A stretch of 64,000 nucleotides of DNA from an uncultured Spirochaetota bacterium (GCA_963734495.1 CAVTHK010000001.1:1-64000); one strand, 5' to 3'; positions 2,388-18,042 are shown, numbered from the stretch's first letter. Program-made: numbers and translations. Notes: generated from the letters alone by a model not told the origin.

Positions 2388-2495
2388 CCATAACATAGAG
2401 TTGAGCTGCGCCGCCGCTATCTACCGGGCAGCAGTCTATACTAGCCCAATCGACCGTGCAAGTCGGCGACTTAAGGCGTCAGCTCCAACGATTTG
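2388..2495 (-). repeat. attC: attC site 3, interrupted by IS110 copy 1 (remainder at 4039-4045)
   Basis: CCATAACATAGAG...CAACGATTTG then IS; GTTAGGC resumes after the IS. Confidence 0.92.
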
Positions 2496-2577
2496 ATACT
2501 TATTAAGGCCTCCCCCTCGGAGGTACGGTAGGATACCTACCGTCGCTCAACTAAACGATTTTGAGGAGGAGGCCACG

Positions 2578-3624
2578 ATGCACTTCTACAGCCGACAGCA
2601 CCGATTCTATTGCGGGATCGATCTGCACGCAAGGAGCATGTACGTCTGCATCATCGATTCTTCGGGGGCGGTGGTCTTCCACCGCAACCTGCCCACCGAC
2701 CGCCAGCAGCTCGTGGAGGCGATCGGGCCCTACAAGGAGGACATCGTTGTCGCGGTCGAGTGCATCTTCACCTGGTACTGGATCGCCGACGTGTGCGCCG
2801 AGCAGGCGATCCCGTTCGTCCTGGGTCACGCGCTGTACATGAAGGCGATTCACGGCGGCAAGACCAAGAACGACAAGATCGACTCACAGAAGATCGCGGG
2901 GCTGCTGCGCGGCGGCCTGCTGCCTCTCGCCTACGCTTACCCCCAGGCCATGCGCTCCACCCGCGATCTGCTTCGCCGCCGCATGTACCTCATGCACCAC
3001 CAGAGCGAGCTGCTGGCCCACATCCAGAACACCAACGCGCAGTACAACCTGGCGGCCTTTGAGAAGCGCATCAACTACCGTGGTAATCGGGCCGAGCTCG
3101 GCGAGCATTTCCAGGACCCGATGGTGAGAAAGAGCGTCGAGGCTGACAGCGAGGTCCTCGACACTCTCCACAAAGTGCTGCTGAAGCTCGAGGGCGCGGT
3201 CCTGGAGCAAGCCCGTGATCACGATCCGGCGACTCTGCAGTTGATCCGCAGCGTTCCCGGCATCGGCAAGGTGTTGTCTCTGGTGATCCTCTATGAGATC
3301 CAGGACATCGGCCGCTTCCCCACGGCGGGAAACTTCATCTCCTACGCGCGGCTGGTCAAATGCGCCCGCGAGTCTTCAGGAAAGAAGAGTGGATCGCGCA
3401 ACTCAAAGATCGGCAACGTCCACCTCAAGTGGGCCTTCTCCGAGGCGGCCGTGACGTTCTTGCGCAACAACGAGCCCGCCCAGCTCTATCACCACAAGCT
3501 CGTCGCCAAGTACGGCAAGGCCAAGGCTCTGTCGATCATCGCGCAGAAGCTCGGCCGCACCCTCTACTTCATCCTCAAGCACAAGGAGGCTTTCGACCCC
3601 CTGCGTTTTTACCAAGGAGGTTGA
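2578..3624 (+). CDS. IS110 DEDD recombinase/transposase
   Basis: GIDLH, VAVEC and KNDKID acidic motifs; VPGIG and RESSG (candidate catalytic Ser) in the C-terminal domain; GAGGAGG RBS. Confidence 0.96.
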   Translation: MHFYSRQHRFYCGIDLHARSMYVCIIDSSGAVVFHRNLPTDRQQLVEAIGPYKEDIVVAVECIFTWYWIADVCAEQAIPFVLGHALYMKAIHGGKTKNDKIDSQKIAGLLRGGLLPLAYAYPQAMRSTRDLLRRRMYLMHHQSELLAHIQNTNAQYNLAAFEKRINYRGNRAELGEHFQDPMVRKSVEADSEVLDTLHKVLLKLEGAVLEQARDHDPATLQLIRSVPGIGKVLSLVILYEIQDIGRFPTAGNFISYARLVKCARESSGKKSGSRNSKIGNVHLKWAFSEAAVTFLRNNEPAQLYHHKLVAKYGKAKALSIIAQKLGRTLYFILKHKEAFDPLRFYQGG

Positions 3625-3910
3625 TGAGAGAAAGGGACAGGGTGTGCAGCAAACCTGTCACGCCTAACTGGACTGCCATCCCTGTGCGCGCTCTATGTTC
3701 GGGCAAGTCCCACGATTTGATTGGTCGCACACCCTGGTCCCGTTTTCTCTGTGCACGACAACGGAACACCGATACGCGGTCTGCCCCGCGCCGAGCCGCA
3801 AAAGTAACTGAGGCACCGCGAGGTGACCCCCTTTTTTGATTCGGACGGCGGTCGGGCACCAATAGTCTTCTAGAGCGCTTCGGGCGACTCTCGATACGTG
3901 TTTGGTGCAG
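3625..3910 (+). ncRNA. putative bridge/seek RNA of IS110 copy 1 (same in copies 2-3, slightly diverged in copy 4)
   Basis: Hairpin 3627-3750 whose internal loop holds GCCTAAC and ACGATTTG (attC target); second hairpin 3856-3908 holds ATACGTG (IS end plus core); RNA boundaries approximate. Confidence 0.75.
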
Positions 3911-4237
3911 GCTGCGTTCCTGCACCCATCGCAGAAACCAAGTCGGACCAACTTGTCGGGTGTTCTTGCGCAGTCCCGAGGCAGCCACACGGTTGTCAGG
4001 ACTTCTCACGCCTCTTGACGAGGGAAGGCCTTATACGTGTTAGGCTGCCAACGCAGCCAGCCAACGCTCCACGGACTTGCAGCCTTGGCTTTGGCCGGCC
4101 TCCGTGATGCTGAACCTGGCCTGGTTGGGCTTGTCACCAGTCTGCACCGCCATCACGGAGATGAGTCTATCCGGCCCATCGACGGAGCGGTGGTGATCTG
4201 TGCGTTGCCCAGGACGTAGTGGCAACGGCGAGTAGCT

Positions 4238-4474
4238 CTACAGTGAATGAACACAGTATTTGTACAACAACCCTCTGATGAGCAGCTTTGTGGTTCCGTC
4301 TGCCGCGATCAAGTAGCAGGGTGGAGAGGGGCTCTGCACCATTTCGATGAGCAGACCCTTCTCCTTGAGCGCACCAAGAGTCTTGTAGAGCGCAGGAGCG
4401 TTCTCGGCCACGGTCTTGTTGATGTCCGGCAGCCGGTTTCGATAGATGGCTTGGCCCATCCCGTATGGCGCCAC
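4238..4474 (-). CDS. short or truncated cassette ORF, unknown function
   Basis: Best ORF in cassette 4039-4587; no clear start or RBS. Confidence 0.35.
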   Translation of the reverse strand: MAPYGMGQAIYRNRLPDINKTVAENAPALYKTLGALKEKGLLIEMVQSPSPPCYLIAADGTTKLLIRGLLYKYCVHSL

Positions 4475-4580
4475 GACTGCAAGCTCTGCGCATGCTTCGC
4501 CCTCTTTGGCCAGTGTAGCGTGCGCAGACGGCGGGCGATCAGCAAGCCCATAGGCACGCCGCTCGGTCGCGTTCGACGCG

Positions 4581-4687
4581 ACATAACATAGAGTTGAGTA
4601 GCGCCGCCGAGGCTCCCCAGCTCACAGTGTAGTCGAGCCTCGCCGACCGTGCCAGTCGGCCCTTCAGGCGTCTACTCCAACGATTTG
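4581..4687 (-). repeat. attC: attC site 4, interrupted by IS110 copy 2 (remainder at 6231-6237)
   Basis: attC consensus ending CAACGATTTG; GTTATGC after the IS. Confidence 0.92.
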
Positions 4688-6229
4688 ATACTTATTAAGG
4701 CCTCCCCCTCGGAGGTACGGTAGGATACCTACCGTCGCTCAACTAAACGATTTTGAGGAGGAGGCCACGATGCACTTCTACAGCCGACAGCACCGATTCT
4801 ATTGCGGGATCGATCTGCACGCAAGGAGCATGTACGTCTGCATCATCGATTCTTCGGGGGCGGTGGTCTTCCACCGCAACCTGCCCACCGACCGCCAGCA
4901 GCTCGTGGAGGCGATCGGGCCCTACAAGGAGGACATCGTTGTCGCGGTCGAGTGCATCTTCACCTGGTACTGGATCGCCGACGTGTGCGCCGAGCAGGCG
5001 ATCCCGTTCGTCCTGGGTCACGCGCTGTACATGAAGGCGATTCACGGCGGCAAGACCAAGAACGACAAGATCGACTCACAGAAGATCGCGGGGCTGCTGC
5101 GCGGCGGCCTGCTGCCTCTCGCCTACGCTTACCCCCAGGCCATGCGCTCCACCCGCGATCTGCTTCGCCGCCGCATGTACCTCATGCACCACCAGAGCGA
5201 GCTGCTGGCCCACATCCAGAACACCAACGCGCAGTACAACCTGGCGGCCTTTGAGAAGCGCATCAACTACCGTGGTAATCGGGCCGAGCTCGGCGAGCAT
5301 TTCCAGGACCCGATGGTGAGAAAGAGCGTCGAGGCTGACAGCGAGGTCCTCGACACTCTCCACAAAGTGCTGCTGAAGCTCGAGGGCGCGGTCCTGGAGC
5401 AAGCCCGTGATCACGATCCGGCGACTCTGCAGTTGATCCGCAGCGTTCCCGGCATCGGCAAGGTGTTGTCTCTGGTGATCCTCTATGAGATCCAGGACAT
5501 CGGCCGCTTCCCCACGGCGGGAAACTTCATCTCCTACGCGCGGCTGGTCAAATGCGCCCGCGAGTCTTCAGGAAAGAAGAGTGGATCGCGCAACTCAAAG
5601 ATCGGCAACGTCCACCTCAAGTGGGCCTTCTCCGAGGCGGCCGTGACGTTCTTGCGCAACAACGAGCCCGCCCAGCTCTATCACCACAAGCTCGTCGCCA
5701 AGTACGGCAAGGCCAAGGCTCTGTCGATCATCGCGCAGAAGCTCGGCCGCACCCTCTACTTCATCCTCAAGCACAAGGAGGCTTTCGACCCCCTGCGTTT
5801 TTACCAAGGAGGTTGATGAGAGAAAGGGACAGGGTGTGCAGCAAACCTGTCACGCCTAACTGGACTGCCATCCCTGTGCGCGCTCTATGTTCGGGCAAGT
5901 CCCACGATTTGATTGGTCGCACACCCTGGTCCCGTTTTCTCTGTGCACGACAACGGAACACCGATACGCGGTCTGCCCCGCGCCGAGCCGCAAAAGTAAC
6001 TGAGGCACCGCGAGGTGACCCCCTTTTTTGATTCGGACGGCGGTCGGGCACCAATAGTCTTCTAGAGCGCTTCGGGCGACTCTCGATACGTGTTTGGTGC
6101 AGGCTGCGTTCCTGCACCCATCGCAGAAACCAAGTCGGACCAACTTGTCGGGTGTTCTTGCGCAGTCCCGAGGCAGCCACACGGTTGTCAGGACTTCTCA
6201 CGCCTCTTGACGAGGGAAGGCCTTATACG
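4688..6229 (+). mobile_element. IS110 copy 2
   Basis: Appears identical to copy 1 (offset 2192); TG flanks. Confidence 0.95.
4770..5816 (+). CDS. IS110 transposase
   Basis: Identical 348-aa protein. Confidence 0.96.
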   Translation: MHFYSRQHRFYCGIDLHARSMYVCIIDSSGAVVFHRNLPTDRQQLVEAIGPYKEDIVVAVECIFTWYWIADVCAEQAIPFVLGHALYMKAIHGGKTKNDKIDSQKIAGLLRGGLLPLAYAYPQAMRSTRDLLRRRMYLMHHQSELLAHIQNTNAQYNLAAFEKRINYRGNRAELGEHFQDPMVRKSVEADSEVLDTLHKVLLKLEGAVLEQARDHDPATLQLIRSVPGIGKVLSLVILYEIQDIGRFPTAGNFISYARLVKCARESSGKKSGSRNSKIGNVHLKWAFSEAAVTFLRNNEPAQLYHHKLVAKYGKAKALSIIAQKLGRTLYFILKHKEAFDPLRFYQGG

Positions 6230-6303
6230 TGTTATGCGGCTCCAGGTTGAATGACAACCAAGCCGACTGCGTCATTGTGGTACGGCCTGACTACTCGGCG
6301 GTG

Positions 6304-6840
6304 TCATAGGCTCATCCTCATGTGGATATCATCAGGCTCGCGCGCGTACATCTCCGGGTCAGCTTGCGCGGTCGGGAGGAAGCCGACGCTCGTGTAGAAC
6401 CTGATCGTATTCTCCGACGGCGTAGCCGAAACATAGAGATACTTGGCGCCTAGCCTGCGGGCGTCGTCCTTGATCAGCGCGACCAGCTGCGTGCCGACCC
6501 CGATACCTCTGTAGCCTTTGCTGACCCAGAGGCCCGATAGGTTGACCATGTTCCTATCGGACTCCATTGGGTTGCGATTCAGGATCGCCATCCCCACAAG
6601 CCGGGTGCCATCTCGGGCACCGTAGACGGCGGCACCCTCGGACAGGCGCCGCCTGATCCTTTCGACGCGACAAGCCTTTTCCTGCGGCTTCCAGTCAGGT
6701 ATGTCCTGGTGGTCGTCATGGAGAGTAAGTCGACCATTGTGCATTCGAAACACCCGGTCGACCTTTTCGCTGCGATCGAGGTCAATAAGCTGTGGAATAT
6801 CGGCGTCGGTAAGCTCTTTGTAGAGTATGGACGAACTCAC
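6304..6840 (-). CDS. GNAT N-acetyltransferase cassette
   Basis: LWVSKGYRGIGVGTQL acetyl-CoA motif A; NTIRFYTSVGF; GTG start after GGAGG. Confidence 0.9.
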   Translation of the reverse strand: MSSSILYKELTDADIPQLIDLDRSEKVDRVFRMHNGRLTLHDDHQDIPDWKPQEKACRVERIRRRLSEGAAVYGARDGTRLVGMAILNRNPMESDRNMVNLSGLWVSKGYRGIGVGTQLVALIKDDARRLGAKYLYVSATPSENTIRFYTSVGFLPTAQADPEMYAREPDDIHMRMSL

Positions 6841-7041
6841 GGGTCGCCTCCCATAGGGTATGCCGCTCATGCGGCAAGAACCTGCAACGGTACCTGGGGA
6901 TCACGAGGAGGAAGGCGGGAACAGGATGTGGCGTTGCGGGCGACCTGTCAACTCATCGTTTCGTGACAGAAGCGTTGTCGGAAAGGCACTCCCGACCGTC
7001 ATGAGGCAGGGCTGTTTGCCTTTCGATCAACCCTCTGAGCC

Positions 7042-7149
7042 GCATAACATAGAGTTGAGTAGCGCCGCCGAGTAGCTCCCAGGCCCACAGTATAGTCGAG
7101 CCTCCCCGACCGTGCCAGCGGCCCTTCAGGCGTCTACTCCAACGATTTG
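7042..7149 (-). repeat. attC: attC site 5, interrupted by IS110 copy 3 (remainder at 8693-8699)
   Basis: attC consensus; GTTAGGT after the IS. Confidence 0.92.
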
Positions 7150-8691
7150 ATACTTATTAAGGCCTCCCCCTCGGAGGTACGGTAGGATACCTACCGTCGC
7201 TCAACTAAACGATTTTGAGGAGGAGGCCACGATGCACTTCTACAGCCGACAGCACCGATTCTATTGCGGGATCGATCTGCACGCAAGGAGCATGTACGTC
7301 TGCATCATCGATTCTTCGGGGGCGGTGGTCTTCCACCGCAACCTGCCCACCGACCGCCAGCAGCTCGTGGAGGCGATCGGGCCCTACAAGGAGGACATCG
7401 TTGTCGCGGTCGAGTGCATCTTCACCTGGTACTGGATCGCCGACGTGTGCGCCGAGCAGGCGATCCCGTTCGTCCTGGGTCACGCGCTGTACATGAAGGC
7501 GATTCACGGCGGCAAGACCAAGAACGACAAGATCGACTCACAGAAGATCGCGGGGCTGCTGCGCGGCGGCCTGCTGCCTCTCGCCTACGCTTACCCCCAG
7601 GCCATGCGCTCCACCCGCGATCTGCTTCGCCGCCGCATGTACCTCATGCACCACCAGAGCGAGCTGCTGGCCCACATCCAGAACACCAACGCGCAGTACA
7701 ACCTGGCGGCCTTTGAGAAGCGCATCAACTACCGTGGTAATCGGGCCGAGCTCGGCGAGCATTTCCAGGACCCGATGGTGAGAAAGAGCGTCGAGGCTGA
7801 CAGCGAGGTCCTCGACACTCTCCACAAAGTGCTGCTGAAGCTCGAGGGCGCGGTCCTGGAGCAAGCCCGTGATCACGATCCGGCGGCTCTGCAGTTGATC
7901 CGCAGCGTTCCCGGCATCGGCAAGGTGTTGTCTCTGGTGATCCTCTATGAGATCCAGGACATCGGCCGCTTCCCCACGGCGGGAAACTTCATCTCCTACG
8001 CGCGGCTGGTCAAATGCGCCCGCGAGTCTTCAGGAAAGAAGAGTGGATCGCGCAACTCAAAGATCGGCAACGTCCACCTCAAGTGGGCCTTCTCCGAGGC
8101 GGCCGTGACGTTCTTGCGCAACAACGAGCCCGCCCAGCTCTATCACCACAAGCTCGTCGCCAAGTACGGCAAGGCCAAGGCTCTGTCGATCATCGCGCAG
8201 AAGCTCGGCCGCACCCTCTACTTCATCCTCAAGCACAAGGAGGCTTTCGACCCCCTGCGTTTTTACCAAGGAGGTTGATGAGAGAAAGGGACAGGGTGTG
8301 CAGCAAACCTGTCACGCCTAACTGGACTGCCATCCCTGTGCGCGCTCTATGTTCGGGCAAGTCCCACGATTTGATTGGTCGCACACCCTGGTCCCGTTTT
8401 CTCTGTGCACGACAACGGAACACCGATACGCGGTCTGCCCCGCGCCGAGCCGCAAAAGTAACTGAGGCACCGCGAGGTGACCCCCTTTTTTGATTCGGAC
8501 GGCGGTCGGGCACCAATAGTCTTCTAGAGCGCTTCGGGCGACTCTCGATACGTGTTTGGTGCAGGCTGCGTTCCTGCACCCATCGCAGAAACCAAGTCGG
8601 ACCAACTTGTCGGGTGTTCTTGCGCAGTCCCGAGGCAGCCACACGGTTGTCAGGACTTCTCACGCCTCTTGACGAGGGAAGGCCTTATACG
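7150..8691 (+). mobile_element. IS110 copy 3
   Basis: Near-identical to copy 1 (one T>A amino-acid change, DPAT>DPAA); TG flanks. Confidence 0.95.
7232..8278 (+). CDS. IS110 transposase
   Basis: 348 aa with DEDD motifs. Confidence 0.96.
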   Translation: MHFYSRQHRFYCGIDLHARSMYVCIIDSSGAVVFHRNLPTDRQQLVEAIGPYKEDIVVAVECIFTWYWIADVCAEQAIPFVLGHALYMKAIHGGKTKNDKIDSQKIAGLLRGGLLPLAYAYPQAMRSTRDLLRRRMYLMHHQSELLAHIQNTNAQYNLAAFEKRINYRGNRAELGEHFQDPMVRKSVEADSEVLDTLHKVLLKLEGAVLEQARDHDPAALQLIRSVPGIGKVLSLVILYEIQDIGRFPTAGNFISYARLVKCARESSGKKSGSRNSKIGNVHLKWAFSEAAVTFLRNNEPAQLYHHKLVAKYGKAKALSIIAQKLGRTLYFILKHKEAFDPLRFYQGG

Positions 8692-8768
8692 TGTTAGGTG
8701 GACCCCGTCCGCGAGCGAGTCCGACTAGCGAGCTGCCGCCAGCACGAAGCCACGCGGCTGCCTAGGGG

Positions 8769-9372
8769 TCAGCGGGTCCTGAGTGCCCGATCGTAGACGT
8801 ACTTCTGCATGGAGTAGTCGTCTGGATACTCGCGTTGTGCACGGCCTTTCGCTGGCGAGCTCGTCGACACGGCTCATGTATGACTTTGCGGAAAACTGCT
8901 GGTCATAGGCGTACTTTTGCATCGAATAGTCGTCGGGATACTCCCGTACGGCGATCCCTTTGACTTCCGGATCTCCGACCACAGCCATGTAGCGCTTTGC
9001 CGAAAGTTGTTGATCGTAGACGTATTTCTGCATGGAGTAGTCGCCGGGATGCTCTCTGGCGGCAATGGCCTTAATTTCGGCGTCGTCAACCGTTCCGATG
9101 CATCGTTTTGCCGCGGTCTGTTGGTCGTACACGTATTTCTGCATCACGAAGTCCTCGGGGTGCTCGCGAAGCGCAATTGCCCTGGTCTCTGGGTCGGCCA
9201 CCGTGCCCATGTAGCGATACGCAGACAGCTGCTGATTGTAGACGTACTGCTGCAGGTGCGCATCGTTAGGGTATTCGCGTTCCGCAAACGCCCGTAGACG
9301 CGACTCAATCGGCTGCGCGGCCGCAGCCGCGGAGAGGCAGAGAACGAGAATCCACGCCGGTGCCTTTCTCAT
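8769..9372 (-). CDS. secreted 37-aa tandem-repeat protein cassette (frameshift near 8855)
   Basis: Signal peptide MRKAPAWILVLCLSAAAAA; repeats RE(H/Y)PxDYxMQKYVYDQQ; fifth repeat continues in another frame to a TGA at 8769. Confidence 0.8.
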
Positions 9373-9389
9373 GCAAACCTCCAAGGGCC

Positions 9390-9504
9390 ACATAACATAG
9401 AGTTGAGTAGCGCCGCCGAGGAGCTACCTGATCCACAGCATAGTGAAGCCTTTCCGACCGTGCCAGTCGGCCTCTCAGGCGTCTACTCCAACGATTTGTT
9501 GGGC
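9390..9504 (-). repeat. attC: attC site 6 (empty)
   Basis: ACATAACATAGAG...CAACGATTTGTTGGGC. Confidence 0.92.
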
Positions 9505-11137: not shown

Positions 11138-11261
11138 ATCCAACGAAGAGTTGAGCAGCCGCGGATTAATTACCGAAGTGGCTACCTGCACACATTGTAA
11201 CGCCCCCTCGGCTCACCGTGCCAGCGGGATCATAGCGGTCTGCTCAAACGACTTGTTATGT
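11138..11261 (-). repeat. attC: attC site 8 (variant type, empty)
   Basis: ATCCAACGAAGAGTTGAGCAGCCGC...GCGGTCTGCTCAAACGACTTGTTATGT. Confidence 0.88.
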
Positions 11262-11938
11262 GCGCCAGTCTCACCGCCACTCGCCCAGCCAGCCGGGGGG
11301 CTCATGTCTGCGGCAGGGGTCGTCGACCCCGGGCTTGCGCCACCCTGTCAGGCGCCCCTGGCTCCGTGAGGCCCGTCGGCTACCAGGGTGTCTATGGCGA
11401 GGGCGGCGAGAGCCGCGGTGGCGAGCAGCAGCGCGCAGTTACTTTTCGCCCTGGGAGGGCCGCCTCCATCGCGTTTCGGCTCGCCGAAGCGGACAGATGC
11501 GCCTGCGATCCTGTGGCGGCTCGCACCGTAGATGGGCGGGCCTGCCCGCTGCGCTGCGTAGTGAGCCGCGGCGGGTCATGGGCTGCGAGCCGTTGCATGA
11601 GCAAGGATGCCTTTCGATGTCGGCTCGGGTGTATGGAGCGAGTCTGAAGGAGAGCAGTTCGGCGGTGACGGTTAACAGGCTGGTCCCGAGCCGCCGAGAA
11701 AGAGCAGTCCCCTCCCAGGGCGAACAGGACGCTGAAAGCGTAATCTTTCAAGCCCTGCCCCCCGGGTGCAGCGGAGGGTAGGCAGTGACGAGGCGGAACA
11801 TGTGGCGATAAGGAAGGCAGAGAACCGGGCGAGGGCCGCGGGCGAACGGTGTCCGACCCCAAGGATACTTCCCTGCCCAGTTCGCTGTGAGCCTATCGAT
11901 CTCTGATGCCGGCCAAATCGCGACAGGGTGCACATAAC
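11255..11938. other. ORF-less cassette, copy A (candidate structured ncRNA)
   Basis: Bounded by GTTATGTGC / GCACATAAC; no convincing ORF shared with copy B; many internal inverted repeats. Confidence 0.75.
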
Positions 11939-12046
11939 GAAGAGTTGAGCAGCCGCGCCGAAGTGGCTACCTGAACACATTGTAACGCCCCCTCGGCTCA
12001 CCGTGCCAGCGGGATCTTAGCGGTCTGCTCAAACGACTTGTTATGT
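11932..12046 (-). repeat. attC: attC site 9 (variant type, empty)
   Basis: Near-identical to attC 8. Confidence 0.88.
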
Positions 12047-12725
12047 GCGCCAGTCTCACCGCCACTCGCCCAGCCAGCCGGGGGGCTCATCTCTGCGGCA
12101 GGGGTCGTCGACCCCGGGCTTGCACCACCCTGTCAGGCGCCCCTGGCTCCGTGAGGCCCATCGGCTGTCAGGGTGTCTATGGCGAGGGCGGCGAGGGCCG
12201 CGGTGGCGAGCAGCAGCGCGCAGTTACTTTTCGTCCTGGGAGGGGCCGCCTCCATCGCGTTTCGGCTCGCCGAAGCGGACAGATGCGCCTGCGATCCTGT
12301 GGCGGCTCGCACCGTAGATGGGCGGGCCTGCCCGCTGCGCTGCGTAGTGAGCCGGGGCGCGTCATGGGCTGCGAGCCGTTGCATGAGCAAGGATGCCTTT
12401 CGATGTCGGCTCGGGTGTATGGAGCGAGTCTGAAGGAGAGCAGTTCGGCGGCGACGGTTAACAGGCTGGTCCCGAGCCGCCGAGAGAGAGCAGTCCCCTC
12501 CCAGGGCGAACGGGACGCTGAAAGCGCAATCTTTCACGCCCTGCCCCCCGGGTGCAGCGGAGGGTAGGCAGTGACGAGGCGGAACATGTGGCGATAAGGA
12601 AGGCAGAGAACCGGGCGAGGGCCGCGGGCGAACGGCGTCCGACCCCAAGGATACTTCCCTGCCCAGTTCGCTGTGAGCCCGTCAGGTCTCTGATGCCGGC
12701 CAGTTCGCGACAGGGTGCACATAAC
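12040..12725. other. ORF-less cassette, copy B
   Basis: Tandem, slightly diverged duplicate of 11255-11938. Confidence 0.75.
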
Positions 12726-12827
12726 ATAGAGTTGAGCTGCGCCGCCGCAAGCTCCCGAGCATCCAGTCTATACCAGCCCTGCCGGCCGTGCCAGGTCGGC
12801 CGTTAAGGCGTCAGCTCCAACGATTTG
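12719..12827 (-). repeat. attC: attC site 10, interrupted by IS110 copy 4 (remainder at 14370-14376)
   Basis: attC consensus; GTTAGGT after the IS. Confidence 0.92.
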
Positions 12828-14368
12828 ATACTTATTAAGGCCTCCCCCTCGGAGGTACGGTAGGATACCTACCGTCGCTCAACTAAACGATTTTGAGGAG
12901 GAGGCCACGATGCACTTCTACAGCCGACAGCACCGATTCTATTGCGGGATCGATCTGCACGCAAGGAGCATGTACGTCTGCATCATCGATTCTTCGGGGG
13001 CGGTGGTCTTCCACCGCAACCTGCCCACCGACCGCCAGCAGCTCGTGGAGGCGATCGGGCCCTACAAGGAGGACATCGTTGTCGCGGTCGAGTGCATCTT
13101 CACCTGGTACTGGATCGCCGACGTGTGCGCCGAGCAGGCGATCCCGTTCGTCCTGGGTCACGCGCTGTACATGAAGGCGATTCACGGCGGCAAGACCAAG
13201 AACGACAAGATCGACTCACAGAAGATCGCGGGGCTGCTGCGCGGCGGCCTGCTGCCTCTCGCCTACGCTTACCCCCAGGCCATGCGCTCAACGCGCGATC
13301 TGCTTCGCCGCCGCATGTACCTCATGCACCACCAGAGCGAGCTGCTGGCCCACATCCAGAACACCAACGCGCAGTACAACCTGGCGGCCTTTCAGAAGCG
13401 CATCAACTACCGTGGTAATCGGGCCGAGCTCGGCGAGCATTTCCAGGACCCGATGGCGAGAAAGAGCGTCGAGGCTGACAGCGAGGTCCTCGACACTCTC
13501 CACAAAGTGCTGCTGAAGCTCGAGGGCGCGGTCCTGGAGCAAGCCTGTGATCACGATCCGGCGGCACTGCAGTTGATCCGCAGCGTTCCTGGCATCGGCA
13601 AGGTGTTGTCTCTGGTGATCCTCTACGAGATCCAGGACATCGGCCGCTTCCCCACGGCGGGAAACTTCATCTCCTACGCGCGGCTGGTCAAATGCGCCCG
13701 CGAGTCTTCAGGAAAAAAAAGCGGATCGCGCAACTCAAAGATCGGCAACGTCCACCTCAAGTGGGCGTTCTCGGAGGCGGCCGTGACGTTCTTGCGCAAC
13801 AACGAGAGCGCCCAGCTCTATCACCACAAGCTCGTCGCCAAGTACGGCAAGGCCAAGGCTCTGTCGATCATCGCGCAGAAGCTCGGCCGCACCCTCTACT
13901 TCATCCTCAAGCACAAGGAGCCTTTCGACCCCGTGCGTTTCTACCAAGGAGGTTGATGAGAGAAAGGGACAGGGTGTGCAGCAAACCTGTCACGCCTAAC
14001 TGGACTGCCATCCCTCTGCGTTCTCTGTATTCGGGCAAGTCCCACGATTTGATTGGTCGCACACCCTGGTCCCGTTTTCTCTGTGCACGACAACGGAACA
14101 CCGATACGCGGTCTGCCCCGCGCCGATCCGCCAAAAGTAACTGAGGCTCCGCAAGGTGACCCCCTTTCTTGATTCGGACGGCAGTCGGGAACCAAATGTC
14201 TTCTAGAGCGCCTCGGGCGACTCTCGATACGTGTTTGGTGCAGGCTGTGTTCCTGCATCCATCGCTGAAACCAAGTCGGACCAGTTTATCGGAGTTCTTC
14301 CCAGGCCAGCGGCAACCACACGGTTGTCAGGACCCGTTACGCCTCTTGACGCCGGGAGGCCTTATACG
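12828..14368 (+). mobile_element. IS110 copy 4 (diverged variant)
   Basis: Same termini and TG flanks; scattered substitutions from about 13290 onward. Confidence 0.95.
12910..13956 (+). CDS. IS110 transposase (variant)
   Basis: 348 aa with a few substitutions relative to copy 1. Confidence 0.95.
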   Translation: MHFYSRQHRFYCGIDLHARSMYVCIIDSSGAVVFHRNLPTDRQQLVEAIGPYKEDIVVAVECIFTWYWIADVCAEQAIPFVLGHALYMKAIHGGKTKNDKIDSQKIAGLLRGGLLPLAYAYPQAMRSTRDLLRRRMYLMHHQSELLAHIQNTNAQYNLAAFQKRINYRGNRAELGEHFQDPMARKSVEADSEVLDTLHKVLLKLEGAVLEQACDHDPAALQLIRSVPGIGKVLSLVILYEIQDIGRFPTAGNFISYARLVKCARESSGKKSGSRNSKIGNVHLKWAFSEAAVTFLRNNESAQLYHHKLVAKYGKAKALSIIAQKLGRTLYFILKHKEPFDPVRFYQGG

Positions 14369-14424
14369 TGTTAGGTTGTTCCCGTTCGCCCTGGGCGGTT
14401 CCGGTGCGAACCGAGCTGGTCTCA

Positions 14425-15462: not shown

Positions 15463-15577
15463 ACCTAACATAGAGTTGAGTAGCGCCGCCGAATTGCTAC
15501 CCAGCTCACAGCATAGTTGAGCCTCCCCGACCGTGCCAGCCGGCCCTTCAGGCGTCTACTCCAACGATTTGTTATGT
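15463..15577 (-). repeat. attC: attC site 11 (first in array, empty)
   Basis: ACCTAACATAGAG...CAACGATTTGTTATGT. Confidence 0.92.
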
Positions 15578-15616: not shown

Positions 15617-16471
15617 CTACTTGAGTGATTCCGCCAAGAAATCCCAAACGGTCTGATCCAATTGGTCTGTGTGGCCGCGCCCACTCTCTACTATCAGCGT
15701 GTGAGACGCGCCCGCTTTCTTCATTCGTGCGTCCAGCAGCAGCGCCTGATCCAGGGAGACGGAGACATCCTTGTCCCCATGGATGGTCAATATTGGCGTC
15801 GTGCCCGGTTTGACATAGTTGATGGGACTTGCCTTTTCGTACTCTTCACGCTTCGCCTGAAGAGAGCCCCCTAAATACGCACTCACGTATGGTTCTCGGT
15901 TCCAACTAACGAGGTCCGTTGCCCCCGAGAGATTGACGACCGCTTGCACGGAGCTCGAGTACTGAAGATAGTCGTCCCGCCCTTCGAGCCCGTCTGCCGG
16001 AACCGTCAGCCCCAGCAGCAGCGCCAAGTTTCCTCCTGATGAGAAGCCAACGACGCCAATGCGTGCTGGATCGATGTCATACTGCGCAGCATTTGCCCTG
16101 AGAAACCGTATGGCGCTCTTGACATCATAGACTTGCGCCGGGAAGATCCCGATAGGTCGGCGGTTGGAGTTCTCTACCGACGCACTATAATCTACAGCGA
16201 CTCCGACATATCCCCTCTGATTGGCAAGATCCAGGGCGTACCAGAATCCCTCCCGGTTAAGAGTCTTGTCGTATCCCCAACCGTTGCCGCAAAGAAACAC
16301 AATTGCCGGCTTCGCAACGCCTAGCGGCTGAGGTCTCTGAATGTCCATCTGAAGTTCTCTGCCATTTATCACCCGATAGGGGACCGCATAGGTTTCAACG
16401 GACGTCTGCGCATGTAGGGATGCAACCGAAACCGACACAATGATGGACACGCCAATGATGCTGACTTTCAC
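15617..16471 (-). CDS. secreted alpha/beta hydrolase (esterase/lipase), first cassette
   Basis: GFSSGG nucleophile elbow, HGDKD, GRGH; signal-like N-terminus. Confidence 0.88.
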   Translation of the reverse strand: MKVSIIGVSIIVSVSVASLHAQTSVETYAVPYRVINGRELQMDIQRPQPLGVAKPAIVFLCGNGWGYDKTLNREGFWYALDLANQRGYVGVAVDYSASVENSNRRPIGIFPAQVYDVKSAIRFLRANAAQYDIDPARIGVVGFSSGGNLALLLGLTVPADGLEGRDDYLQYSSSVQAVVNLSGATDLVSWNREPYVSAYLGGSLQAKREEYEKASPINYVKPGTTPILTIHGDKDVSVSLDQALLLDARMKKAGASHTLIVESGRGHTDQLDQTVWDFLAESLK

Positions 16472-16599
16472 CGACCTCTCCACCTTACTATGCGACCGCG
16501 GGCCGCGACTCAGAAGAGTCTGCCGGAGGCACCTTCTTCTGTCAACGCCCCCCGCCGCAAAGCGTTTCCGTCGCACCGATCAACGACACAATCAGAGAG

Positions 16600-16660
16600 A
16601 CATAACATATTGTGTCGCCGGCAGCCGTCGACCGCTTGCACAACGTTGTCGACCGACTCG
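16600..16660 (-). other. attI: attI site (approximate)
   Basis: ACATAAC core closes the first cassette but is not followed by attC consensus; lies directly upstream of intI. Confidence 0.7.
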
Positions 16661-16761
16661 CGAAGCGTCGAGGCGCGCCACATGGGCGGCGACGCATGCA
16701 GCAGAACCTCAGCCCGCGTTTATCTTATGTGGCCACTGGCGAAAACGCAAACGGGAAAGGG

Positions 16762-18042
16762 ATGCCGCCGCAAGGACTTCCCTTTGAGCTCTACCTTCTG
16801 CGGGTCGCACGGATGCCCGTCAGGATCATCCCATGGATGCGCCACTGGGTGAGGCAATACCCCAGCGTGGCGGATACCCAACCCGCAGGGCGCGCGGCGG
16901 CGCTGGAGCGATTGGCATCTGAGCTGTCCCCCAAGCATGAGCGTGCAGCAGTAGAGCAGGCGTGCCAGGCGGTCAGACACTACTGGTTCTGGCTGGATCG
17001 CTGGCGCCCCGCCGGTGACCCGCAGCACCAGGCGGCGCCAGAGGACGATCGGGAACGGCTGATCGACGAGGCCTGTCGGCTCATGCGCCTGCAGCACAAA
17101 TCGTACCGTACGGAAAGGACTTATCTCGCCTGGATACGGCGCTTCTTCTCGTTTCCGCCGACAGCCAGGAGCCCAGCGATCGACGGGAGCTGCCTTACCC
17201 GCTACCTGACCTTCCTCGCCGTGGAGCGCAGGGTGTCTTCGTCCACACAGCAGCAGGCCTTCAATGCCCTGCTCTTTCTCTTCCGGTCCGTCCTGAATCA
17301 GTCCGTTGATGGGATTGCCTGCGCAGTCAGGGCACGTAGAACGTCGCGTCTCCCTGTCGTGCTCTCGCCGGGTGAAGTAGCGGGGTTGATCGGTCACCTC
17401 TCGGGGCAGTCCCGGCTCATGGCCGAGGTGATCTACGCCGCAGGTCTCCGTCTCCACGAGTGTCTATCGCTCCGCGTGCAGGACCTGGACTTCGACGCTG
17501 AAACTCTCACGGTGCGTCGAGGCAAGGGCCAGAAGGACCGGAGGGCCCTCTTCCCGCCGACGTTGCACAAGGCGATGCAGGGTCACCTGCGCCACGTGCG
17601 CGCGATCTACGAGCAGGACCGCCGCAGCGGCCTTCCCGGGGTACCGCTGCCGGACGCACTGGAGCGCAAGTACCCGAACGCGACCACCGAGTGGCGCTGG
17701 TTCTGGGTTTTTCCATCCGGTCGGCACTCGATCGATCCCCGCACCGGCAAGGTCTACCGATACCACGTCTACCCGACGACTCTTCAAAAGAAGGTGCAGC
17801 AGGCAGTCCGCGAGCTCGGTTTTGCGAAGCAGGCCACCGTGCACTCGCTGAGACACAGCTTTGCGACCCATCTGATCGAAGCTGGCTACGACATCCGTAC
17901 GATTCAGGAATTGCTGGGGCACTCGCACGTGGAGACAACCATGATCTATACTCATGTCGCTCAGCGCAACAAGGCGGGAGTGGTGAGCCCCTTGGAGCGG
18001 CTCAACGCGCGCTACCCTGCGCCCGGTCGTCCGGACGGCTGA
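16762..18042 (+). CDS. intI: integron integrase
   Basis: Tyrosine recombinase motifs (GLRLHE, HSLRHSFATHL, LLGHSHVETTMIYTH) plus the IntI-specific LPDALERKYPNATTEWRWFWVFPS insert; divergent from the cassettes; start uncertain. Confidence 0.96.
   Translation: MPPQGLPFELYLLRVARMPVRIIPWMRHWVRQYPSVADTQPAGRAAALERLASELSPKHERAAVEQACQAVRHYWFWLDRWRPAGDPQHQAAPEDDRERLIDEACRLMRLQHKSYRTERTYLAWIRRFFSFPPTARSPAIDGSCLTRYLTFLAVERRVSSSTQQQAFNALLFLFRSVLNQSVDGIACAVRARRTSRLPVVLSPGEVAGLIGHLSGQSRLMAEVIYAAGLRLHECLSLRVQDLDFDAETLTVRRGKGQKDRRALFPPTLHKAMQGHLRHVRAIYEQDRRSGLPGVPLPDALERKYPNATTEWRWFWVFPSGRHSIDPRTGKVYRYHVYPTTLQKKVQQAVRELGFAKQATVHSLRHSFATHLIEAGYDIRTIQELLGHSHVETTMIYTHVAQRNKAGVVSPLERLNARYPAPGRPDG

Follow-up and report, generated by a model that had tools for sequence, protein, structure and literature searches.

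Copies of a predicted RNA-guided IS1111-type element interrupt three consecutive attC sites of an integron in an uncultured Spirochaetota bacterium

Introduction

Integrons are usually regarded as shuffled by the integrase IntI alone. A stretch of 64,000 nucleotides from an uncultured Spirochaetota bacterium (GCA_963734495.1 CAVTHK010000001.1:1-64000, hereafter the window) carries an integron in which three consecutive cassette recombination sites (attC) are each interrupted by a copy of the same insertion sequence (IS), and the arrangement raises two questions: does insertion of an IS1111-type element block IntI recombination, and can an RNA-guided recombinase of the IS110 family carry a passenger by using the ends of different copies? 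Immobilisation of cassettes by a disrupted attC is a hypothesis already in print for ISPa21 in class 1 integrons, where the experimental evidence was called limited (PMC11616780). Descriptions of attC-targeting IS1111 elements, of their seekRNA and of the immobilisation idea have all been published. An earlier note on this DNA had described the three plugged sites, proposed that they lock their cassettes, and suggested that whole cassettes might be moved between attCs as IS-cassette-IS circles.

Results

BLAST comparison of the element with the window identified four copies, A to D, matching at 2485-4038, 4677-6230 and 7139-8692 (100, 100 and 99.94% identity) and at 12817-14369 (96.5%). A search of the genome revealed a fifth full copy outside the window, on contig C9 (C9:21653-23206, 99.6%), which differs from copy A at six positions and shares the change A737G with copy C. 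Once the ends were set against intact attCs, the element was 1,544 bp long. All copies begin with ATACTTATTAAG and end with GCCTTATACGTG, and the 348-aa open reading frame (ORF) is open in five of the five full copies. A lone 61-nt right-end remnant, 84-85% identical, lies at C16:278645-278708 with no recognisable attC array around it. The element and its parts in the window are as follows.

2496..4039, + strand: IS copy A, 1,544 bp, antisense to the cassette array, with the TG core at 2494-2495 and 4038-4039
2578..3624, + strand: transposase gene of copy A, 348 aa, DEDD IS110-family RNA-guided recombinase
3626..3749, + strand: seekRNA/bridge-RNA-like region of copy A, predicted from its fold, an alignment of the non-coding regions of 41 relatives and a permutation test
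4688..6231, + strand: IS copy B, identical to copy A
7150..8693, + strand: IS copy C, one difference from copy A (A737G)
12828..14370, + strand: IS copy D, an older lineage with 55 differences from copy A, in a fourth attC of the same array; 348-aa ORF open

The left flank of all five copies is ...CTCCAACGATTTG, and copies A, B and C are followed on the right by TTAGGC, TTATGC and TTAGGT, respectively. Every copy sits at the boundary between ...CTCCAACGATTTG and TTRRRY in the same orientation; site and orientation specificity is therefore absolute (5/5 copies). The seven uninterrupted attCs of the window read ...GATTTG followed directly by TTRRRY. Elements of the IS110 family are expected to have a core dinucleotide common to donor and target, and TG at both junctions of each copy is as this expectation requires. 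The earlier note was right on these points: three consecutive attCs are plugged, its coordinates (2388, 4039, 6231, 8693 and 8699) and its figure of about 1.5 kb are correct, the G of GTTAGGC, GTTATGC and GTTAGGT lies at 4039, 6231 and 8693, and all copies are co-oriented.

Because copies A, B and C differ from one another by 0-1 nt, they point to recent insertions into neighbouring attCs. With four of the 11 attCs in the window's array occupied, a run of at least three arises in 64 of 330 arrangements (0.19), and with five of the 28 attCs of this type in the genome occupied the simulated chance of such adjacency is about 0.05; the adjacency is thus weakly non-random. That the three tandem copies reflect misassembly of a repeat in a metagenome bin is a very improbable explanation. 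The genome is of metagenome type, comprising 18 contigs at 83% completeness, and contigs C1, C11 and C18 end inside cassette arrays (C18:961-6095; the window start), but each copy has unique flanks, the four surrounding cassettes each occur once in the genome, there are no Ns, copy C differs by one base, and similar adjacent pairs are present in independent assemblies.

The transposase matches the Pfam families DEDD_Tnp_IS110 (PF01548, E 2.1e-15) and Transposase_20 (PF02371, E 3.7e-19) and, with 192 bits against a cut-off of 140, NCBIfam NF033542 (IS110 family RNA-guided transposase). The element has the layout of the IS1111 type, with 82 nt 5' of the transposase gene (2496-2577) and 415 nt 3' of it (3625-4039); a long non-coding region 3' of the gene and a short one 5' is the published criterion for this type (PMC11187229, PMC11208160). 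Subterminal inverted repeats, TTAAGGCCTCCC near the left end and GGGAAGGCCTTA near the right end, are conserved in relatives. DNA and protein searches of a plasmid collection found no close relative, the best match having 58% amino acid identity, and no recognisable clinical attC-targeting IS to compare against; matches in that collection outside a marine/Manganitrophus group were at most 34% identical. One of the plasmid sequences (H22, from a Pseudomonas aeruginosa plasmid, 34% identity) was considered as a clinical attC-targeting IS and rejected, as it has no integron context.

The 3' non-coding region is predicted to fold with a long closing stem (3626-3749) that encloses two segments matching the flanks of the insertion site. 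Guide 1, GCCTAAC at 3662-3668, is the reverse complement of the right flank GTTAGGC, and guide 2, CCACGATTTG at 3710-3719, has the same sense as the left flank CAACGATTTG and matches it at nine of ten positions. The order, with the top-strand match 5' of the bottom-strand match, is that of the ISEc11, ISPa11 and ISKpn4 seekRNAs (PMC11187229). Alignment of 41 distinct non-coding regions of relatives showed that the RNA architecture is conserved, and in an anchored test that could be applied to 34 of the 41, guides fitted their own flanks better than shuffled ones, with the observed values reached by 1 and 2 of 2,000 permutations. At 3778-3838, 3' of the guide region, lies a GC-rich hairpin with a T run after it, possibly a terminator for an extended version of this RNA.

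As part of the best overall explanation of the locus, which we consider very probable, the element is an attC-specific, RNA-guided insertion sequence of the IS110/IS1111 type, and it is predicted to encode a seekRNA/bridge-type RNA whose two guides pair with both target flanks. The earlier claim that the element is RNA-guided is upheld in this respect by family membership together with the match between guides and flanks. Anatomy, family, the fit of guides to target and targeting across the clade are observed here; that the element is active, locks cassettes or moves them is inferred. Several observations weigh against this explanation. Seven of the 41 relatives could not be anchored in the guide test, some anchors are visibly wrong, and the relatives are not independent of one another. 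A naive comparison of guides and flanks by longest common substring gave no signal (5.98 versus 5.92 and 5.79 versus 5.61), and Rfam held no matching family for the 3' region, its sole match being a spurious lncRNA (E 0.14). Among the public sequencing runs listed, none shared half of the sequence words (best 0.24), and there was no RNA run among them. The metagenome-type assembly, for its part, combines its 83% completeness with 4.7% contamination.

Relatives of the element extend well beyond this genome. In species-representative genomes they are encoded in 433 of 445 candidate stretches, and the best 80 have transposases of 55-76% identity from many phyla. For the 57 relative copies with both ends present and at least 6 nt of right flank, this flank starts with TT in 49 and with strict TTRRRY in 23, and the left flanks, ...GCTGCAGCGnnTTG, are typical of an attC arm; together these flanks indicate that the whole clade targets the same attC point. 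One 59%-identical relative (L051, 613-2265), in a record labelled as a Heimdallarchaeota metagenome-assembled genome, lies in an attC-like site; it could be bin contamination or part of an archaeal integron. Within the Spirochaetota genome, by hand count, all five occupied sites are no more than one position off GTTAGGC, versus three of ten free sites with the same left flank. A scan of metagenome contigs for the exact left-end pattern returned two only, one with a single copy (88% identity) and one with a fragment, and neither bears on movement of cassettes by paired copies. Low-coverage Logan contigs of four public runs, from other samples, contained no joint across 2496-4039, no back-joint 4039>2496 and no deletion allele; contigs of this kind would not have revealed any of the three and weigh on neither side. 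In one contig from another sample (X2), an attC body is joined directly to TTATGCGGCTCCAGG..., the flank common to copy B and the C9 copy; the site is uninterrupted and its locus ambiguous.

By its IntI-type integrase and attC-bounded array, the surrounding region is a chromosomal integron. The integrase gene lies within an ORF at 16612-18042 (+), of which the homologous part starts near 17032, and at least 11 cassettes run from it on the minus strand to the contig start. Features of the array needed here are listed below.

17032..18042, + strand: intI, integron integrase (TIGR02249, 384.2 bits, cut-off 265), divergent from the array
15467..15571, - strand: intact attC of the first cassette, which has a BD-FAE esterase ORF at 15617-16576 (-)
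8694..9396, - strand: cassette Z, with an ORF at 8725-9393 (-) that has no Pfam match; R'' image GTTAGGT at 8693-8699
7042..7149, - strand: attC_C body
6232..7048, - strand: cassette Y, with a GNAT acetyltransferase ORF at 6304-6870 (-); R'' image GTTATGC at 6231-6237
4581..4687, - strand: attC_B body
4040..4587, - strand: cassette X body, 548 bp, with ORFs lacking a Pfam match; its own attC is attC_A
4039..4045, - strand: displaced R'' of attC_A, GTTAGGC on the + strand and GCCTAAC on the array strand
2388..2495, - strand: attC_A body, with R' image CCATAAC (2388-2394), L', loop, L'' and spacer; cut from its R'' by copy A, and of the shape seen in folded intact attCs

The direction of the array determines which box each copy has displaced. 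Cassettes are read on the minus strand because intI occupies about 17.03-18.04 kb on the + strand, and all recognisable cassette ORFs (BD-FAE esterase, methyltransferase, lipocalin-like, GNAT and PIN) are on the minus strand. Two independent tests identify the + strand as the attC bottom strand. Eight of ten cassettes begin, in the minus-strand direction, with 9-14 nt complementary to their own R'', as is expected since the R' of a free cassette is completed by its own first bases; X and Z match less well. The possibility that the poor match of X marks a chimera was dropped, as 5/7 R-box matches are within the normal range. In the second test, the + strands of all four intact attCs folded (4/4) formed R and L stems separated by a 4/4 internal loop, the L stem having two unpaired bases on its 3' arm. 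The recombining bottom strand of an attC has this shape, with R'' and L'' on the 3' side.

It follows from the minus-strand direction that the copies have displaced the inverse core R'', which lies at the attC 5' end in the sense of the array, and not the crossover core R'. The earlier note had taken GTTAGGC, GTTATGC and GTTAGGT for the terminal core box; they are instead the bottom-strand image of R''. Likewise, it had placed cassette limits at 4039, 6231 and 8693, and these do not hold: cassette boundaries (the cut between G and TT of R') are at the other, low-coordinate ends of the attCs, at 2394, 4587 and 7048. Its statement that the left end of one copy and the right end of the next flank a whole cassette survives in part. 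Co-oriented copies do bracket one unit, but the stretch is a circular permutation, made up of R'', the cassette body and the attC body that belongs to the cassette upstream, and not a cassette in the integron sense.

Other features of the arrays bear on cassette content. The ORF of cassette Z is made up of five repeats, each about 111 nt or 37 aa long, and two stretches nearer to intI (11256-11935 and 12041-12722) are a tandem duplicate of a cassette with its attC (96.8% identity), one attC copy having a 9-nt indel. Elsewhere in the genome, a second integron-integrase gene, 54% identical, is present at C11:2469-3434 beside attCs that run off the contig start (C11:1-3434), and CALIN-like attC clusters occur on C9 and C13.

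Each copy puts 1,544 bp between one terminal box and the rest of its attC. An active element would be placed by its guides at the TG of the junction between R'' and spacer, antisense to the cassettes and near the attC 5' end. With R'' some 1.5 kb away there would be no local pairing of R' with R'', and IntI recombination at the three attCs would be strongly reduced, so that cassettes W (1552-2394), X, Y and Z would be held as single units. Locking of this sort is plausible. If displacement of R'' abolishes the action of IntI, four single-cassette excisions would be blocked, namely those of W, X, Y and Z, and a larger block that runs from one intact attC (1449-1551) to another (9394-9498) could still be mobile.

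Folding complicates this prediction. Whole-length single-stranded DNA (ssDNA) folds keep R'/R'' pairing in one of the three plugged sites, an equivocal result that leaves residual IntI activity neither supported nor excluded. At that site, attC_B, pairing between R' and R'' spans the element; IS positions 4696-4714 and 6203-6225 are paired as well, and the subterminal inverted repeats close the element into a loop. Plugged attCs might then remain usable by IntI, with the element folded out through its subterminal repeats and the cassettes unlocked. We regard this as unlikely: the fold appears in only one of three sites, it needs about 1.7 kb of single strand with a junction inside an R box, and cassette order is conserved where ISPa21 disrupts attCs (PMC11616780).

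The genome also bears probable traces of past insertions. Two attCs outside the window (C9:24146-24248, - strand, and C13:211920-212020, + strand) read GATTTG-ATAC-TTATG, with four extra nucleotides, ATAC, exactly at the IS insertion point, where they break the GTT of R''. ATAC is also the first four bases of the element. Since TTAT follows in element and R'' alike, the extra bases are probably the scar of an imprecise IS loss via TTAT microhomology. Loss of the element would thus not always be clean, with ATAC scars left in two attCs elsewhere in the genome.

A second candidate trace is a pair of homologous cassettes, K (595-1448) and K' (C9:23410-24141), which are 86% identical over 730 nt, including R'' and downstream sequence. 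Cassette K has a clean site and K' the extra ATAC. Their attC bodies are 73% identical, the 29th percentile of 351 attC pairs and hence the level of random pairs; by contrast, the duplicated cassettes at 11256 and 12041 have attCs 90% identical. A homology break at the IS site is what recombination between copies, or excision by outer ends, would leave; attC gene conversion would end there too, and this is one case. The ORF of cassette K (621-1229, - strand) encodes a PIN-domain protein with an N-terminal DUF6364 part, and K is likely a toxin-antitoxin-type cassette.

The IS copies, as direct repeats, would make the region prone to deletion, through homologous recombination or possibly through the recombinase acting on ends of different copies. 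That the co-oriented copies act chiefly by providing identical 1.5-kb repeats for ordinary RecA-dependent recombination is a view to which we assign somewhat less than an even chance. One copy and the intervening cassette would be deleted, leaving a single IS in a hybrid attC with no RNA-guided transfer. Copies A, B and C, identical over 1,544 bp bar one base, are ideal substrates; by the IS110 mechanism, the resulting circle, having no abutted right end-left end (RE-LE) junction, would provide no donor; and the differing attC bodies of K and K', along with the scar where they end, are consistent with a RecA event followed by imprecise IS loss. Against it, no deletion allele was found in the genome or in the public contigs, and with three copies still present such events have not yet occurred in this lineage. 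RecA-dependent deletion is compatible with the other readings of the locus and does not exclude them.

The alternative raised by the earlier note would have the recombinase connect one copy's left end with the right end of a copy further on, release an IS-cassette-IS circle, and insert it under seekRNA guidance into another attC, which would amount to cassette shuffling independent of IntI. After correction for R'', this composite route is logically sound, plausible, and fits known IS110 biochemistry. On paper, an outer-end join between copy A (left junction) and either copy B or copy C (right junction) would retain the attC_A body, TG and the foreign R'' of the later cassette, and free a circle with a normal RE-LE donor junction. 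Later excisions of single copies would leave the cassette between two working hybrid attCs, with attC bodies swapped at the R'' boundary. Full-text searches of the literature returned no paper in which such a route is proposed for integron cassettes. We consider it improbable that the route as a whole, including these later steps, has operated here.

Several lines of evidence favor such a route. All junction pairs are identical in sequence and co-oriented, so that on paper any left and right pair is an equivalent substrate. ISPpu9, an element of the IS110 family, uses alternative pairs of ends to make circles and mobilises a passenger module (bioRxiv 10.1101/2025.01.17.633520), and IS621 inserts multi-kilobase cargo, with rare deletions or inversions between insertion sites (PMC11208160). 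A third precedent is excision that depends on bridge RNA (PMC13626964). IS-cassette-IS arrangements occur elsewhere, in four of 79 loci (two copies each in L056 and L060; two left ends each in L028 and L048); in L056 the copies are 668 bp apart, and one of the genomes concerned, with four copies in all, has two of them 669 bp apart. The homologous cassettes K and K', with unrelated attC bodies and a break at the IS site, have the expected form.

Other observations argue the opposite. IS621 excises less efficiently than it inserts (PMC13626964). The circle-junction string is absent from the assembly, where none would be expected, and a search of the genome and the public contigs returned no duplicated IS-cassette-IS unit. 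The inter-IS segments X and Y are single-copy in the genome except for attC matches and one 115-nt stretch, and K/K' is a single case that homologous recombination between copies or attC gene conversion explains equally well. The 115-nt stretch, which adjoins copy B on its right side (6232-6346) and comprises R'' and the GNAT cassette's 3' end, also occurs on the right of the C9 copy (C9:21535-21651, 95.7% identity), where it is followed by non-cassette DNA with GGDEF/EAL matches.

Discussion

The element resembles the IS1111-attC group and other attC-targeting IS1111 elements (ISPst6, ISPa21, ISKpn4 and ISPa25) in its DEDD transposase, long 3' non-coding region and subterminal inverted repeats. 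Like ISPa21 and ISPst6, it occupies a fixed point near the attC 5' end, antisense to the array (PMC3001079), and like seekRNA elements it has a 3' RNA region with a top-strand and then a bottom-strand target match (PMC11187229). The comparison with ISPst6, ISKpn4 and ISPa21 is by description, and the placement is one of functional class. What sets the present case apart from attC-targeting IS1111 elements is that three adjacent attCs are occupied, in a GC-rich environmental genome. Group IIC-attC introns are also mobile, home to attC and lie antisense to cassette transcription (PMC3001079), but they are retroelements with another mechanism.

With respect to movement of passengers, the nearest precedent for an outer-end circle is ISPpu9 of Pseudomonas putida, whose alternative end-box pairs give circles of differing content in what was called "modular transposition" (bioRxiv 10.1101/2025.01.17.633520). 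Unlike the element described here, ISPpu9 targets REP sequences, its alternative ends lie inside one composite element and not in separate full copies, and no cassette is involved. The IS621 bridge recombinase is similar in its RNA-guided choice of target and donor, shared core dinucleotide, RNA-dependent excision and multi-kilobase cargo (PMC11208160, PMC13626964); it differs in belonging to the IS110 subgroup, with a left-end RNA, a CT core and a REP-type target, whereas in the present element the RNA lies in the right end and TG forms the core.

By homing to attC, an element can immobilise stretches of an array, join cassettes together, leave scars in recombination sites and perhaps transport cassettes as well. 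The Spirochaetota array, in which intI is intact, some target sites are free and three identical copies face the same way, is a compact natural test bed for the two questions raised at the outset. If the composite route is true, it would constitute a second, IntI-independent way of moving integron cassettes.

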